NCBI RefSeq assembly: GCF_054482525.1
Contig: NZ_CM137006.1
Direction: 5' to 3' (one strand)
DNA: 64,000 nt
Below are positions 3,267-57,377 of the stretch, one piece after another; position 1 is the first letter of the stretch; the number at the start of each line of letters is the position of its first letter. The position numbers were made by a program, and so were the translations under genes. The notes beneath the pieces were generated by a model that was given only the letters and a program-made list of their open reading frames with translations, ran no database searches and was not told where the DNA came from.

Positions 3267-6200
3267 TGTCGCCGAGACATTAGATCCTTTGCGCTTGCCC
3301 TTACAGGGCGAGCGCCTGATTGAAGCCTCTGCCGGCACAGGCAAAACCTTTACGATTGCGGCGCTCTATTTGCGCCTGTTACTTGGACTAGGCGGTTCTG
3401 CCGCCTTTCCCCGCCCGCTGACCGTTGAAGAACTGCTGGTGGTCACCTTTACCGAGGCTGCCACGGCAGAATTGCGCGGTCGTATCCGTAGCAATATCCA
3501 CGAGTTGCGCATCGCCTGTCTGCGTGAAACCACCGACAATCCACTGTACGAACGCCTACTGGAAGAGATCGACGATAAAGCGCAAGCCGCGCAGTGGTTG
3601 TTGTTAGCCGAACGGCAGATGGATGAAGCGGCAGTCTTTACTATTCACGGTTTTTGCCAGCGCATGCTCAACCTGAATGCCTTTGAATCCGGCATGCTGT
3701 TTGAGCAGCAGCTGATTGAAGATGAGTCTCTGCTACGCTACCAGGCCTGCGCCGATTTCTGGCGTCGCTACTGCTACCCGCTGCCGCGTGAAATTGCCCA
3801 GGTCGTCTTTGAAACCTGGAAAGGACCGCAGGCGTTGCTGCGCGATATTAATCGTTATCTGCAAGGCGAAGCGCCGGTTATCAAAGCGCCGCCGCCCGAT
3901 GATGAAACGCTGGCTTCCCGCCACGCGCAAATTGTGGCGCGTATTGATACGGTAAAACAGCAGTGGCGCGACGCGGTGGGTGAACTGGATGCGCTGATCG
4001 AATCTTCTGGTATTGATCGACGCAAGTTTAACCGTAGCAATCAGGCTAAATGGATCGAGAAGATCAGCGCCTGGGCAGAAGAAGAGACCAACAGTTATCA
4101 GTTGCCAGAGTCGCTGGAAAAATTCTCTCAGCGTTTCTTAGAAGATCGCACGAAAGCCGGGGGGGAAACCCCGCGACATCCACTGTTTGAGGCGATCGAT
4201 CAACTGCTTGCAGAACCATTGTCGATCCGCGATCTGGTGATCACCCGCGCATTGGCTGAGATCCGCGAAACAGTAGCGCGTGAAAAACGCCGCCGTGGCG
4301 AATTGGGTTTTGATGACATGTTAAGTCGGCTCGATTCCGCGCTGCGTAGCGAAAGCGGCGAGGTGTTGGCAGCGGCGATCCGTACGCGATTCCCGGTGGC
4401 AATGATCGATGAATTTCAGGATACCGACCCCCAGCAGTACCGAATTTTTCGCCGTATCTGGCACCATCAGCCGGAAACCGCATTGTTGCTGATTGGCGAC
4501 CCGAAACAGGCCATTTATGCATTCCGGGGTGCGGATATCTTCACTTATATGAAGGCGCGTAGCGAAGTTCACGCCCACTACACTTTAGACACCAACTGGC
4601 GTTCCGCACCAGGAATGGTGAATAGTGTGAACAAGCTTTTCAGTCAGACTGATGACGCGTTCATGTTTCGCGAAATTCCTTTTATTCCAGTGAAATCAGC
4701 CGGGAAAAATCAGGCGTTACGTTTTGTCTTTAAAGGTGAAACGCAGCCTGCGATGAAAATGTGGCTGATGGAAGGCGAAAGCTGCGGCGTTGGCGACTAT
4801 CAAAGTACCATGGCGCAGGTATGTGCTGCGCAAATCCGCGACTGGCTACAAGCCGGACAGCGGGGCGAAGCGTTGCTGATGAACGGCGACGACGCGCGTC
4901 CGGTGCGTGCTTCGGACATCAGTGTGCTGGTGCGCAGCCGCCAGGAGGCCGCCCAGGTGCGCGACGCCTTAACGTTGCTGGAAATCCCTTCCGTTTACCT
5001 TTCGAACCGCGACAGTGTTTTTGAAACTCTGGAAGCGCAGGAAATGCTTTGGTTGTTGCAGGCGGTGATGACGCCCGAACGTGAGAACACCCTGCGTAGT
5101 GCGCTGGCAACGTCAATGATGGGGCTGAACGCGCTGGATATCGAAACGCTGAACAATGACGAACATGCGTGGGATGCGGTAGTCGAAGAGTTCGATGGTT
5201 ATCGGCAAATCTGGCGCAAACGTGGCGTTATGCCGATGCTGCGGGCGCTGATGTCGGCGCGTAACATTGCTGAAAACTTGCTGGCAACGGCAGGCGGTGA
5301 GCGGCGTCTTACCGATATCTTGCATATCAGCGAACTGCTACAAGAAGCCGGAACGCAGCTGGAAAGTGAACATGCGCTGGTACGCTGGTTATCGCAACAT
5401 ATCCTCGAGCCAGACAGTAATGCCTCCAGCCAACAAATGCGCCTCGAAAGTGATAAACATCTGGTGCAGATTGTCACGATCCATAAATCAAAAGGGCTGG
5501 AATATCCGCTGGTCTGGTTGCCATTTATTACCAATTTCCGCGTCCAGGATCAGGCGTTCTATCACGATCGCCACTCGTTTGAGGCTGTTCTGGATCTTAA
5601 TGCTGCGCCAGAAAGTGTCGATCTCGCGGAGGCCGAACGTCTGGCGGAAGATCTGCGTTTGCTTTACGTGGCGCTGACACGTTCGGTTTGGCATTGCAGT
5701 CTCGGCGTTGCACCGCTGGTGCGCCGTCGTGGCGATAAAAAAGGTGACACCGACGTCCACCAAAGTGCGCTCGGGCGTTTGCTGCAAAAAGGGGAACCGC
5801 AAGATGCGGCAGGGCTTCGCACCTGTATTGAAGCGTTATGCGATGATGATATTGCCTGGCAAACGGCACAAACGGGTGATAACCAGCCCTGGCAGGTTAA
5901 TGATGCTTTAACTGCAGAACTGAATGCGAGGACGCTACAACGATTGCCCGGCGATAACTGGCGTGTCACCAGCTACTCCGGTTTGCAGCAGCGTGGTCAC
6001 GGTATCGCTCAGGATCTGATGCCACGGCTGGATGTTGATGCCGCAGGCGTGGTCAGCGTCGTTGAAGAACCGACGTTAACACCGCATCAGTTCCCGCGCG
6101 GTGCGTCACCAGGGACATTCTTGCACAGTTTGTTTGAAGACCTCGATTTTACCCAGCCGGTTGACCCGAACTGGGTACAGGAAAAACTGGAACTCGGCGG

Positions 6201-14063: not shown

Positions 14064-14068
14064 ACAAT

Positions 14069-14104
14069 CAGGTCGGATGCGACGCGAACGTCTTATCCGA
14101 CCTG
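14069..14104. repeat. REP (repetitive extragenic palindrome) unit between convergent tcdA and csdE
   Basis: CAGGTCGGATGCGACGCGAACGTCTTATCCGACCTG palindrome. Confidence 0.6.
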
Positions 14105-14113
14105 GTTCTGTGC

Positions 14114-20212: not shown

Positions 20213-21631
20213 TCACACTTCCTCTATAAATTCAGGTTCAGTTTGCGGGTAGAAATAACGGTACTGATAATGAATCTGTGCGCGGGCTTCTTCCGGGCTG
20301 TTAAATTCCCCTACGCCATACCAACCGAACAGCGCAGCTCCTGCGACGGTCGTTTCGGCGTCGTCGAGAACTTTTACCGGAATATCAAGCATATTGGCTT
20401 TAATCTGATTCCACAATGTGTTGCGACTTCCTCCACCGACTAACAATAATTCAGAGGCTTTAAAGTGCCCGATTTTTTCCAGCATCTGTAGATTGCGCTG
20501 TAATTGCGCAGTTAACCCTTCCAGCGCCGCGCGATAGAAATGCCCCCGCGTGGTATTAAGCGTCACTCCTTGCCAGCCAGCGTTCTGACACGACAATAAA
20601 TCACACTGCATTTTTACGCCATCCGCGCCAGGCGCGATCAGACGAGCTTCTTCAATCAACATTTGCCAGGGTGTTTCAGCCGTCCAGAACAGTTTTCTCA
20701 CCCATTCCAGCACGCCGGATGCCAGCCATTGCATACCTGGGTTATACAACCCTGCCTGGCTATCCAGTTCGCAGGTGGAACCGGCGTACTGACTTAACAG
20801 CGAAGTATCAACCTGGGCGCTACGGACCATTAAAATTTCCCATGTACCGGAAGAGAGCACGGGTTCATTTTGTTCGGCACCAGCGCCAAAAAGGGCGAAC
20901 TGGGTATCGTGACCTGCGGAAATCACCGGTATGCCAACGGGTAAGCCGAGCATTCCTGCGGCGCTGTTCTGTAACGTACCAATCTGTTCACCCGCTTCCA
21001 CCAGACGAGGGAAGAGTCGGCGTGGAATACCGGTGGCTTGTAAAATTTGCGGACTGAAATCGCGTTGCTGGATATCCAGCATCTGGCTGGTTCCGGCCAT
21101 CGTGATATCAGTAGTGAATTCGCCGGTTAAACGGTGGTTAATCAGCGACGAAATAAAGAGCCAGGCGTGCGCGCGTTCCAGCAGTTGTGGATGATTTTCT
21201 TTCAACCACACCAACTTATATAACGTATTGAAACTAAAGGCTCCGACTCCAGAAATAGCCTGCAACTGCTGTGCGGAGATCAACCGTTCAATATTGTCCA
21301 TTACCGCTGCTGTTCGCGGACATTTCCAGCTAATGATCGGATAGAGCAGATTGCCTTGCTTATCTACCAGAGCGCCATCCACACCAAAGGTGGTGACGGC
21401 GATACCGCGGATGTGGCATTCAGTCAGTTCACTATTGATTTGCCGACAGCAATCAGCAAAGCGTTGCAAAATGGCGTCTAAAGACCACTGGTGCCAGGTG
21501 GTGTTTTCCATCGCGATATCGCTGGCATTAGGCGTTGAGGCGCGGGCAACAATTTTTCCCTGCCGATTAACCGCGATGGCCCTGACATTGGTCGCGCCAC
21601 AGTCGAGTACCAGGATAACTTCTTGTTTCAT
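20213..21631 (-). CDS. fucK: L-fuculokinase (FGGY family)
   Basis: 472 aa from ATG at 21631 with AGGAG Shine-Dalgarno; ORF track extension to 21661 starts at TTG and is probably not used. Confidence 0.92.
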
Positions 21632-27234: not shown

Positions 27235-27252
27235 ATGCGCTGATGTGATAAT

Positions 27253-27285
27253 GCCGGATGCGACGCTAGCCGCGTCTTATCCGGC
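27253..27285. repeat. REP unit (part of a BIME) between convergent fucO and xni
   Basis: GCCGGATGCGACGCTAGCCGCGTCTTATCCGGC; a partial second unit follows at about 27323-27335. Confidence 0.6.
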
Positions 27286-27338
27286 ATATAAGTGCATTAA
27301 ATTCAATGTGCTGATAATCGTTTGCATCCGGCACGTCG

Positions 27339-34619: not shown

Positions 34620-34988
34620 TTCGTCGACAGGGAGTCAGACAACGAAGTGAACATCAGGATGATGACACTTCTGAAGGACACACCAGGATGGTGTTTCAGG
34701 GAAAGGCTTCTGGATGAAGCGAAGAGGATGACGCAGGACGCGTTAAAGGACACCTCCAGGATGGAGAATGAGAACCGGTCAGGATGATTCGGTGGGTCAG
34801 GAAGGCCAGGGACACTTCAGGATGAAGTATCACATCGGGGTGGTGTGAGCAGGAAGCAATAGTTCAGGATGAACGATTGGCCGCAAGGCCAGAGGAAAAG
34901 TTGTCAAGGATGAGCAGGGAGCAACAAAAGTAGCTGGAATGCTGCGAAACGAACCGGGAGCACTGTGAATACAGTGCTCCCTTTTTTT
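34620..34988 (+). ncRNA. csrB: CsrB small RNA (CsrA-sequestering sRNA)
   Basis: About 369 nt with roughly 20 GGA-containing motifs (CAGGAUG/AGGA) in predicted loops; ends in GGGAGCACTGTGAATACAGTGCTCCC hairpin plus T7 terminator; 5' end approximate. Confidence 0.9.
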
Positions 34989-35033
34989 ATTCCTGCTATC
35001 CTTCGCGGCAGTTTTTCTTATTGAGGTTGCTTT

Positions 35034-36162: not shown

Positions 36163-36612
36163 ATGGCGGAAATTGGTATTTTTGTCGGCACCATGTACGG
36201 AAATTCGCTGTTAGTGGCGGAAGAAGCAGAAGCAATTCTGACCGCACAGGGCCACAAAGCAACGGTATTTGAAGATCCTGAATTAAGCGACTGGCTGCCC
36301 TATCAGGATAAGTATGTTCTGGTGGTTACGTCCACGACCGGGCAGGGCGACCTTCCTGATAGCATTGTGCCGCTCTTTCAGGGAATCAAAGATAGTCTGG
36401 GCTTCCAGCCGAATCTGCGTTATGGCGTGATTGCGCTCGGCGACAGCAGTTATGTGAATTTCTGCAATGGCGGCAAACAGTTCGATGCCTTGTTGCAGGA
36501 ACAGAGCGCTCAGCGGGTTGGCGAAATGCTGTTGATTGACGCCAGTGAGAACCCGGAACCGGAAACGGAATCAAATCCGTGGGTCGAACATTGGGGCACG
36601 CTGTTGTCCTGA
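36163..36612 (+). CDS. yqcA: Flavodoxin-like protein
   Basis: 149 aa; flavodoxin fold signature (TSTTGQG). Confidence 0.88.
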
Positions 36613-36665
36613 TATGTTCAGCGAGCGGTAAATGCCGTTTTAGCGGTGCTGAATCGAATCTTTTC

Positions 36666-36720
36666 AGGCAAATGCCAGTAAAAACTGCTTCATAGCGCGG
36701 ATTTTTACTGGCGTTTGCCT
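36666..36720. repeat. Long inverted repeat (19-bp arms, 17-bp spacer) downstream of yqcA and upstream of gudP
   Basis: AGGCAAATGCCAGTAAAAA...TTTTTACTGGCGTTTGCCT; one G-U wobble if RNA. Confidence 0.6.
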
Positions 36721-37046
36721 GGAGTCAAGCGATCCATTTCATACTCTTCTTTATTTCTTCGTTTTAACCCTTCCTTTCTTGTTTTTGTTTTCATTTCCGT
36801 GAAGTGGATTCCACCGTCCAGGGCTAATGCCAAAATCGGGCCTCATTGAACGCATTAATGTTGTGTTGTTGCACGGTGAGCCGCTATGGCGCGCTTTTTA
36901 TACTGCTATTGCCAGATATAAACACGCGCCGTATTCGGCGAACGACCTATAAAAACGGCAAAAAACACCCTACGTCACCTCTGATTTCCTGGCGATGTCG
37001 CAGTCCAGAGTGAGCGTGGCTAACGCGAATTTTCAGGAGTGCAACA

Positions 37047-38399
37047 ATGAGTTCTTTAAGTCAGGCTGCGAGCAGTGTGGAAAAACGCACGAATGCTCGT
37101 TACTGGATAGTGGTGATGTTGTTTATCGTCACATCCTTCAACTACGGCGACCGCGCTACGCTCTCTATCGCCGGTTCGGAAATGGCCAAAGATATCGGCC
37201 TTGATCCTGTGGGAATGGGCTATGTGTTCTCTGCTTTCTCATGGGCTTATGTTATCGGGCAGATCCCTGGTGGCTGGTTGCTGGACCGTTTTGGTTCAAA
37301 ACGCGTCTACTTCTGGTCGATCTTTATCTGGTCGATGTTTACCTTGCTGCAAGGCTTCGTCGATATTTTTAGTGGATTCGGCATTATCGTTGCCCTGTTT
37401 ACGCTGCGCTTCCTGGTCGGGCTTGCTGAAGCGCCATCTTTCCCCGGTAACAGTCGCATTGTAGCGGCCTGGTTTCCGGCGCAGGAAAGGGGAACGGCGG
37501 TGTCGATTTTTAACTCCGCTCAATACTTCGCAACGGTGATCTTCGCGCCGATTATGGGCTGGCTGACGCATGAAGTGGGCTGGTCACACGTCTTTTTCTT
37601 TATGGGCGGTCTGGGCATTGTCATCAGCTTTATCTGGTTGAAAGTCATCCACGAGCCAAATCAACATCCGGGTGTAAATCAGAAAGAGCTGGAGTACATC
37701 GCTGCGGGTGGCGCGCTGATCAATATGGATCAGCAAAACACCAAAGTTAAAGTACCGTTCAGCGTGAAGTGGGGGCAGATCAAACAGCTGCTCGGGTCAC
37801 GGATGATGATCGGCGTTTATATCGGTCAGTACTGTATCAACGCCCTGACTTACTTCTTTATTACCTGGTTCCCGGTTTATCTGGTGCAGGCGCGCGGGAT
37901 GTCGATTCTTAAAGCGGGCTTTGTGGCTTCCGTTCCGGCGGTTTGCGGTTTTATCGGCGGTGTGCTGGGTGGGATTATTTCCGACTGGCTGATGCGCCGC
38001 ACGGGATCGCTGAACATTGCGCGTAAAACACCGATCGTAATGGGCATGTTGCTGTCGATGGTGATGGTGTTCTGCAACTACGTCAACGTTGAGTGGATGA
38101 TCATCGGCTTTATGGCGCTGGCCTTCTTCGGTAAGGGCATCGGGGCGCTGGGTTGGGCAGTAATGGCAGATACCGCGCCAAAAGAGATCAGCGGTCTTTC
38201 CGGTGGCCTGTTCAACATGTTCGGTAACATTTCTGGCATCGTCACGCCAATCGCAATTGGTTATATCGTTGGCACGACTGGCTCCTTTAATGGGGCGCTG
38301 ATTTATGTTGGTGTTCATGCCTTAATCGCGGTACTGAGCTACCTGGTGCTGGTGGGCGATATCAAGCGTATCGAGCTGAAACCTGTCGCGGGGCAATAA
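37047..38399 (+). CDS. gudP: Glucarate/galactarate transporter (MFS)
   Basis: 450 aa, 12 TM; first gene of gudPXD. Confidence 0.93.
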
Positions 38400-41192: not shown

Positions 41193-41228
41193 TTATTTTT
41201 TTAATTCATTGAATTTAATTGGTGTTTA

Positions 41229-41260
41229 TGCCGAATAAGGCGTTAACGCCGCATCCGGCA
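41229..41260. repeat. REP unit
   Basis: TGCCGAATAAGGCGTTAACGCCGCATCCGGCA. Confidence 0.55.
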
Positions 41261-41334
41261 TAAACACAGGCACCTTGTCACCAGTCTGAAACCAGCGTCA
41301 TAAAAAGCCGATTGCTACTCGGCAAGACGGTCCA

Positions 41335-57107: not shown

Positions 57108-57155
57108 AAAAAAAAGAGAAAAGTAAGCCGCCCTTTCAGGTGGATTACTTTTCTC
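57108..57155 (-). terminator. Leader intrinsic terminator about 25 nt upstream of yqcE start (putative attenuator)
   Basis: On minus strand GAGAAAAGTAA-18 nt loop-TTACTTTTCTC (perfect 11 bp) followed by T8 run. Confidence 0.6.
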
Positions 57156-57277: not shown

Positions 57278-57331
57278 TTAGCGATTATGCCCTTATGATA
57301 AAAATTATCTCCAGTTACCAGAGATAATGAG

Positions 57332-57377
57332 AAAGGTAACTTCCCTCTCGCGGGGGAAGTTACCTTTCTTTTTTTTT
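57332..57377 (+). terminator. Leader intrinsic terminator about 25 nt upstream of ygcW start (putative attenuator)
   Basis: AAAGGTAACTTCCC-tctcgcgg-GGGAAGTTACCTTT (perfect 14 bp) followed by CTTTTTTTTT; upstream AGTTACC (57313-57319) can pair with GGTAACT (57335-57341) as an alternative antiterminator. Confidence 0.6.

Follow-up and report, generated by a model that had tools for sequence, protein, structure and literature searches.

What is the unusually long inverted repeat that lies between yqcA and the gudP promoter, and does it act as DNA, as RNA or not at all? The DNA that we analysed, a stretch of 64 kb hereafter called the window, is E. coli K-12-like, and in it csrB (34632-34991, + strand, identified by an Rfam match) is followed on the + strand by yqcC, truC, yqcA (36163-36612), an intergenic region of 434 bp, gudP (37047-38399) and gudX. 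This yqcA-gudP layout, with both genes on the same strand, agrees with the K-12 annotation (window position x corresponds to MG1655 2,959,147 - x, minus strand), and an earlier note on this DNA, which had placed yqcA upstream and gudPXD downstream of the repeat, had the context right. Neither K-12 record holds an annotated feature in the yqcA-gudP intergenic region. At 34956-35031, on the minus strand, weak Rfam matches cover the csrB terminator region (CsrB 3' part, 22.6 bits; Pseudomonas P31, 21.1 bits), and these probably reflect the palindromic csrB terminator only. For comparison, 80 Enterobacteriaceae loci were collected via YqcA, 65 of which could be anchored on the gudP promoter. The synteny of yqcA and gudP is widespread among these loci, and the length of the intergenic region is bimodal.

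The earlier note had reported a 19-bp inverted repeat with a 17-bp spacer at 36666-36720. We found that the repeat is real and one base wider on each side (36665-36721). The left arm, which we call distal box U1 (36665-36684, CAGGCAAATGCCAGTAAAAA), contains the core GGCAAATGCC plus an A-tract; the right arm, box U2 (36702-36721, TTTTTACTGGCGTTTGCCTG), is an inverted copy of U1 and reads CAGGCAAACGCCAGTAAA on the minus strand; and both enclose a 17-nt loop (36685-36701, CTGCTTCATAGCGCGGA) at the place where other genera carry a small GC stem. With 20 nt each, the arms form 19 Watson-Crick pairs and one T:G mismatch, and the palindrome measures 57 bp overall. In any yqcA read-through transcript (+ strand), the full hairpin would span 36662-36724 with 27 pairs, G-U included. 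Folded as RNA, the + strand of the repeat reaches -40.3 kcal/mol (z = -8.8), which none of 200 shuffles equalled, and the - strand -31.7 kcal/mol (z = -7.8). Among the close-range inverted repeats of the whole window, this one is listed first, and 100 shuffles of the window gave no 20-mer inverted match even at up to 3 mismatches.

A palindrome in intergenic DNA, inside a block that is present in some genera and absent from others, might belong to a dispersed repeat family (REP/BIME, ERIC, Box C or a MITE remnant), and a REP-like element was one of the options raised in the earlier note. Like REP and BIME sequences, the repeat lies between genes as an imperfect palindrome and might stabilise the mRNA upstream of it, but it differs from them in being single-copy and in having an AT-rich centre. 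No second copy at up to 3 mismatches was found elsewhere in the window, and a query of 76 nt detected the repeat in 5425 of 5426 complete E. coli genomes at 5449 places (median one, maximum two per genome), carrying no annotation in any of the genomes matched. The search for recurrence elsewhere in the genome therefore returned a single-copy sequence in these 5425 genomes, which refutes the REP-like reading. Furthermore, the arms have no similarity to the GC-rich REP consensus (GCCGGATGCGRCG...), and the block that contains them sits at fixed spacing inside a conserved regulatory region, so that membership in a dispersed family retains hardly any probability at all. The window does hold REP-like palindromes of the GCCGGATGCG.. 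type (41222-41267, 14066-14107 and 27251-27287), which are GC-rich and unrelated to the yqcA-gudP repeat. Another inverted repeat of the window, perfect over 16 bp (AGAAAGGTAACTTCCC / GGGAAGTTACCTTTCT) and with a spacer of 8 nt, lies at 57330-57369, and a second repeat, of 17 nt, is found nearby at 57116-57155.

The core gudP promoter is found on the + strand at 36869-36904, with TTGCAC at 36869-36874, a gap of 24 nt and a TATACT -10 at 36899-36904. This arrangement (GCACGGTGA, then the TATACT -10) is common to 65/65 anchored loci, and TATACT is the only sigma-70-like -10 that is conserved in all of them. The proximal D box (36820-36837, + strand, AGGGCTAATGCCAAAATC), which served as our reference motif copy, likewise occurs in 65/65 loci, at offset -51 from the GCACGG anchor. 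With the alignment anchored on TTGCAC, the layout TTGCAC-N24-TAT(A/G)CT is common to gudP, garP and cdaR, and the box stands at equal distance upstream of TTGCAC in gudP (GGGCTAATGCCAAAATC) and garP (GTGCATATGCTCAAAAT). The modules of box, TTGCAC, 24 nt and TAT(A/G)CT extend over 36820-36904 of the window for gudP, 20260-20345 of locus L082 for garP and 3394-3445 of locus L084 for cdaR, and all three promoters are without a good -35. From these alignments, we propose the series TGKGC-W4-GCC-N2-AAAC, TTGCAC, 24 nt, TAT(A/G)CT as a candidate definition of a CdaR-dependent promoter.

Are the arms of the repeat copies of this box? A position weight matrix was trained solely on 30 distinct gudP D boxes from non-Escherichia genera (consensus TGGGCTTATGCCATAAAC), weights the A-tract heavily, and was used to scan both strands of the window (127,966 positions). 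The E. coli D box ranked first with 12.1 bits, and the left arm of the repeat took ranks 2 and 3 (10.2 bits on the - strand, 9.6 bits on the + strand). The right arm came at rank 12 on the minus strand (7.5 bits, empirical p ~9e-5), a score that is not independent evidence because this arm is an inverted copy of the left one. Applied to the gar intergenic regions, the same matrix gave best matches of 12.7 bits in E. coli, 11.3 in Salmonella, 15.5 in Klebsiella, 26.5 in Superficieibacter, 14.4 in Kosakonia and 16.7 in Enterobacter, and it gave 9.3 bits upstream of cdaR, each of the gar and cdaR matches being at or beyond p ~2e-5 (~99 kb, both strands). Since a matrix trained on gudP also finds the gar and cdaR regions, the motif tracks the known CdaR regulon, and the match is specific to gud, gar and cdaR. 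The comparison of the garP, garD and gudP regions that the earlier note had suggested is thus positive, with a shared box in the gar regions of six genera, upstream of cdaR and in 65/65 gudP loci. A plain k-mer comparison of the gud and gar regions had missed this box, which TTGCAC anchoring together with the matrix revealed.

The box has a GGC-W4-GCC core flanked by 2-3 variable bases and an A-tract. In ~113 kb scanned, U1 and U2 form the only inward-facing pair of matches of at least 4 bits lying 30-60 bp apart. Their cores are 43 bp apart, that is about four helical turns, and relative to the inferred start of gudP the pair lies at about -246 to -190. The D-box matrix does not recover the promoter-proximal TTGCAC elements of gudP and of E. 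coli garP, so the analogy of the repeat to the D/P box pair is partly by eye. A second CdaR-dependent promoter, driven from the distal module via CATACT at 36740-36745, was considered as a remote possibility and set aside, the spacings being 3-5 bp too short and the -10 poor. The LexA, TyrR, PurR, FadR and CRP consensus sequences, compared by eye, were also rejected, their half-site spacing not fitting the repeat.

A paper from 2020 states that the DNA site of CdaR is not determined, and it reports that related PucR-type activators bind inverted repeats of 17-24 bp and that GabR binds two inverted repeats as an octamer (PMC7652997). A computational SdaR motif was published as a figure by Rodionov et al. 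in 2010. Our literature search found no CdaR ChIP, SELEX or DAP data, and the biosensor papers that it returned give no CdaR site. CdaR belongs to the same regulator group as GabR of C. glutamicum and AdeR and PutR of B. subtilis, which bind their 17-24-bp inverted repeats upstream of the promoters that they activate; like those operators, the gud/gar box has a palindromic core and comes in pairs ~42-43 bp apart. Unlike them (-87 to -23), the gud pair is located at about -246 to -190, its arms are split by 17 nt of unrelated sequence, and CdaR binding to it is a prediction. A parallel also comes from the garP/garD region of E. coli, in which an inverted pair with the same core motif (GTGCATATGCT-N31-AGCATTTGCAC) is spaced ~42 bp apart, to be compared with AGGCAAATGCC-N33-GGCGTTTGCCT in the gud repeat. 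However, the garP/garD pair stands directly at the promoters, with one box overlapping the TTGCAC that lies 24 nt from the -10, and it has an AT-rich spacer without a stem and arms of ~11 nt instead of 20.

We then asked how this distal sequence has evolved. In the loci L009-L081, a distal block of ~140 bp shows presence/absence variation among genera: it occurs in ~26 of the 65 anchored loci, while ~39 keep the core gud promoter without it. Where present, its elements come in the order ACTGAATCG.., GGCAAATGCC, A-tract, variable centre, usually a T-tract, ACNGGCRTTTTCA and then GGGTCAAGCGACC, and in Escherichia the block takes the form of the palindrome seen in E. coli. Throughout the 260-bp upstream region, spacings vary by no more than 1 bp, whereas the stretches between boxes turn over. 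Salmonella arizonae and diarizonae have a block centre 8-10 bp shorter. U1 matches of at least 5.9 bits lie at a fixed distance of -205 to -207 from the promoter anchor in ~24 of the 26 block-bearing loci, covering at least 10 genera. U1 is conserved also in genera whose opposite arm is not complementary, and its conservation therefore exceeds what pairing requires. On the contrary, U2 passes the threshold nowhere outside Escherichia, and within this genus in half (3 of 6) of the representatives. The conservation in other Enterobacteriaceae, to which the earlier note had pointed as a test, hence holds for U1 within the block-bearing loci but neither for the block as a whole nor for the full U2, which is confined to Escherichia.

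The right arm indicates how this difference may have arisen. At this site, the outgroups read ...GGCRTTTTCATAGG and Escherichia reads GGCGTTTGCCTGGAG; aligned as GGCRTTTTCATAGGG against GGCGTTTGCCTGGAG, they differ by four substitutions within 8 nt, three of which create complementarity to the left arm, and the same cluster separates TTTTCATAGGG (outgroup) from TTTGCCTGGAG (Escherichia). This looks like quasi-palindrome correction by template switching. Within Escherichia, the left arm is the most conserved part and is invariant in the four E. coli strains compared. In the loop and the right arm, ACTGG has become ATTGG, CCTGG has become CCTCG and one lineage has four changes, all of them uncompensated, and 5 of 20 positions vary in the right arm versus 2 of 20 in the left, a difference that is not statistically meaningful. 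Among the transitions in the Escherichia stem, three yielded G-U on the + strand and two on the - strand, a split that shows no strand bias and is uninformative, and in one lineage the hairpin has drifted to -30 kcal/mol. Judging from these alignments, the left box is the old conserved part and the length of the repeat an Escherichia-specific elaboration.

In any yqcA read-through RNA, the palindrome would be transcribed as well. The earlier note had remarked that the repeat lacks a canonical U-tract and is not a typical terminator, and indeed a consensus terminator scan reported nothing there on either strand in E. coli. The full E. coli stem is followed by GAGUCAAGCG, with no U-tract after it, and the hairpin that is available at the U5 tract is a 4-bp inner stem of -3.9 kcal/mol, which is insignificant (z = -0.3). 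In other genera, the centre is more terminator-like. A stable small central hairpin is found in ~12 of the 26 block-bearing loci with a stem that differs by genus (CCCTTTC/GAAAGGG, CCGC/GCGG, ACCGCT/AGTGGT, CCCTC/GAGGG, CCCTGC/GCAGGG), T5-7 follows directly after the centre in ~17 of the 26, and an A-tract precedes the centre in nearly all. The centres of Citrobacter, Superficieibacter, Raoultella and Salmonella, made of A4-5, a GC stem of 4-7 bp and T5-7, thus resemble bidirectional intrinsic terminators; unlike those, E. coli has a GC stem of only 4 bp with an 8-nt loop, and its palindrome runs 13-15 bp past the A and T tracts. The architecture of stable inner stem plus T5-7 is missing from Phytobacter, some Kosakonia, Silvania and the UBA genomes, and Phytobacter and Kosakonia carry A-rich sequence in place of the T-tract. 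The outer helix is 69% paired across the 26 sequences versus 32-46% with the partner slid. The covariation score was matched by 5 of 500 shuffles, with most of the signal coming from one stem position (40-72), which covaries across genera as AU 7, CG 7 and UA 3.

Searches against RNA families were negative. An Rfam 15 scan of the E. coli region gave a snoRNA as the only overlap with the repeat, at chance level (25.5 bits against a gathering score of 90, E = 4.7), and a scan of seven other genera found no match at the repeat, the sole family detected being CsrB, upstream. We also looked at the sequence that directly follows yqcA, where the earlier note had seen a first loose hairpin (36616-36653) as its possible terminator. 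This hairpin is marginal: it folds at -14.7 kcal/mol (z = -1.8), a value that 9 of 200 shuffles equalled, and it lacks conservation among the Escherichia sequences. We found no support for its proposed role as yqcA terminator. Immediately past yqcA, Escherichia has a single terminator-like feature, a small AU-rich hairpin followed by TCTTTTC (36636-36666, + strand), which a stem/T-tract scan detected in 5 of 6 Escherichia representatives and the consensus terminator scan does not call; with its neighbour, it folds at ~-9 kcal/mol. By comparing the first ~40 nt past the yqcA stop in L007-L081 with 36613-36660 of the window, we observed that most genera have a GC-rich hairpin (CCCTCCC...GGGAGGG) straight after the stop, in many cases with no good T-tract behind it. 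This hairpin was lost from the E. coli clade, and E. albertii (L014), which has no gudP at the locus, keeps a similar one. Just downstream of the repeat hairpin, on the + strand, lies a pyrimidine-rich tract of 63 nt (36738-36800; T 38, C 15, A 6, G 4) with a sequence that varies among genera and a length that is constant; Rho might load there onto yqcA read-through transcripts. There is no yqcA or gudP entry in the supplementary text consulted for one E. coli Term-seq study, and in the literature that we could consult we found no 3'-end or RNase III data for the repeat site. A divergent small RNA starting from a weak minus-strand TTGACT-16-AAAAAT that overlaps the right arm was also considered and rejected, this sequence not being conserved as a promoter across loci.

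Taking these observations together, we favour, at a little short of an even chance, that the repeat is a DNA-level element, namely an extra distal CdaR operator made of two inward-facing regulon boxes. The operator proposed in the earlier note, with CdaR as an example, is therefore the best supported of its suggestions, both arms matching the regulon box, but it is not the core activator site. Given that the D box is found in 65/65 loci while the distal block is found in ~26/65 and a full U2 in Escherichia only, the repeat is at most an accessory site, the core being located ~155-200 bp downstream. According to this proposal, CdaR, a PucR-type activator, would bind both at the distal pair and, ~155 bp downstream, at the proximal D box and TTGCAC, and the distal module would tune the activation of gudPXD through cooperative binding or looping. 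U1 would be the ancestral box, and 3-4 substitutions would have turned the right arm of Escherichia from a half-match into a full inverted copy, hence the unusual length of the repeat. AraC O2, LacI O3 and GalR OE/OI are distal auxiliary operators that act by looping. Like them, the gud repeat is an extra site 100-200 bp from the main one, at fixed spacing and dispensable for basic regulation; unlike them, it would serve an activator, and looping at gud is only a proposal. The operator reading is weakened by the fact that the distal block was dispensable in evolution, and a pure protein-site model predicts neither the covarying stem position nor the covarying inner stem with its T-tract.

In a rival reading, the palindrome would be an RNA element of the yqcC-truC-yqcA transcript whose ancestor was an intrinsic and partly bidirectional terminator that preceded the gud control region. 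The E. coli version would then be a very stable 3'-end stem-loop that blocks 3' exonucleases after a later, possibly Rho-dependent, termination in the pyrimidine-rich tract; alternatively, the hairpin might pause or insulate read-through transcription, or be a substrate for RNase III. The very stable + strand fold, whose sole mismatch is U-G on that strand, the genus-specific central hairpins between A- and T-tracts, the covarying stem position, the preferential pairing of the outer helix, the lack of the GC-rich post-yqcA hairpin in Escherichia, and the 63-nt tract downstream all argue for such an element. Nevertheless, polymerase positioned at U5 leaves only a 4-bp hairpin to form, the full stem has no U-tract behind it, the inner stem is missing in several genera, Phytobacter and Kosakonia are A-rich at the T-tract, and the left arm is conserved even without a complementary partner. 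Also, the transitions to G-U within Escherichia are not biased to one strand, one lineage has weakened to -30 kcal/mol, no Rfam family matches, and the part of the Term-seq supplement that we consulted lists neither gene. The structured RNA of the earlier note keeps some plausibility, the hairpin being very stable and the centre terminator-like in other genera, but the hairpin at the U-tract is insignificant in E. coli and pairing is not visibly maintained within Escherichia, and we regard a primary RNA role as possible though doubtful. A small RNA gene or a cis-acting leader RNA of gudP could likewise be suspected from the strong structure, the conserved ACTGAATCG..GGCAAATGCC flank and the T-tract of at least 6 in some genera. 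However, we found no conserved promoter-like site on either strand that is placed to drive such a transcript and no Rfam match, and the hairpin is outside the gudP leader because the only conserved -10 (36899-36904) lies ~180 bp downstream of it, which makes this proposal very improbable.

The palindrome might also be neutral. In that case, a partial inverted match would have stood beside the old box U1 and a decayed hairpin, a template switch in the Escherichia ancestor would have completed it, and the extended repeat would now be slowly decaying. This would fit with the clustering of four substitutions in 8 nt, three of them giving perfect complementarity to the left arm, with a right arm that varies more than the left and shows no compensatory changes, and with the absence of the whole block from most genera. 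On the other hand, the near-universal presence of the repeat in E. coli, with at least 99% identity over 76 nt in 4320 genomes, speaks for its maintenance, even though such identity is typical of E. coli intergenic DNA, and the new right arm completes a full regulon box at exactly the 42-43-bp spacing of other box pairs. We therefore consider a purely neutral origin and persistence unlikely. The operator and RNA readings are not mutually exclusive. The sequence that would bind CdaR also folds into a very stable hairpin in yqcA read-through RNA and may have a second role at that level. In a dual use of this kind, which we judge decidedly unlikely in its full form, the DNA would be a second CdaR module that forms a loop with the proximal one, at a distance of 155 bp, and determines the uninduced expression of gudPXD or how far it can be induced, while the RNA would end or stabilise the constitutive yqcA transcript and insulate the gud promoter. 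CdaR occupancy and upstream transcription might then affect each other, for instance with CdaR as a roadblock, or else the formation of a hairpin or cruciform might displace CdaR.

CdaR is widely used as a biosensor for glucarate and glycerate, and TGKGC-W4-GCC-N2-AAAC offers a concrete candidate box for it. Together with the promoter layout and the distal two-box module, this box would aid the design of minimal or tunable CdaR-responsive promoters and would explain why long native fragments (~500 bp) are usually cloned. Beyond this, the locus, which is otherwise ordinary regulatory DNA, provides a clean and small example of how a clustered mutation that looks templated has lengthened a palindrome.

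Finally, both arms of the repeat are bordered by conserved boxes of another kind. Next to the left arm, a Cra/FruR-like box (36648-36663, + strand, GCTGAATCGAATCTTT) agrees with the published Cra motif gcTGAAtCGaTTCAgc (PMC5888115) in 12 of its 16 positions, among them the entire left half. Most block-bearing loci conserve the box, at fixed spacing, as ACTGAATCG(T/A)GTTAGC. This suggests a putative Cra site upstream of gudP at 36648-36663, although the main text of the Cra ChIP-exo paper (PMC5888115) mentions neither gud nor yqc. Next to the right arm, the box at 36722-36735 (GAGTCAAGCGATCC in E. coli, GGTCAAGCGACC in other genera) has the form GGTC-N4-GACC and resembles the palindromes of the GntR family. 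Its TCAAG.GA is invariant in all 26 aligned sequences, and the GTCAAG box is always 147-148 bp upstream of the GCACGG anchor. A further conserved box (TTTTCATTTCCGTGAA, 36788-36803), with a half-site spacing unlike that of CRP, is found exactly 83 bp upstream of the same anchor in many genera.
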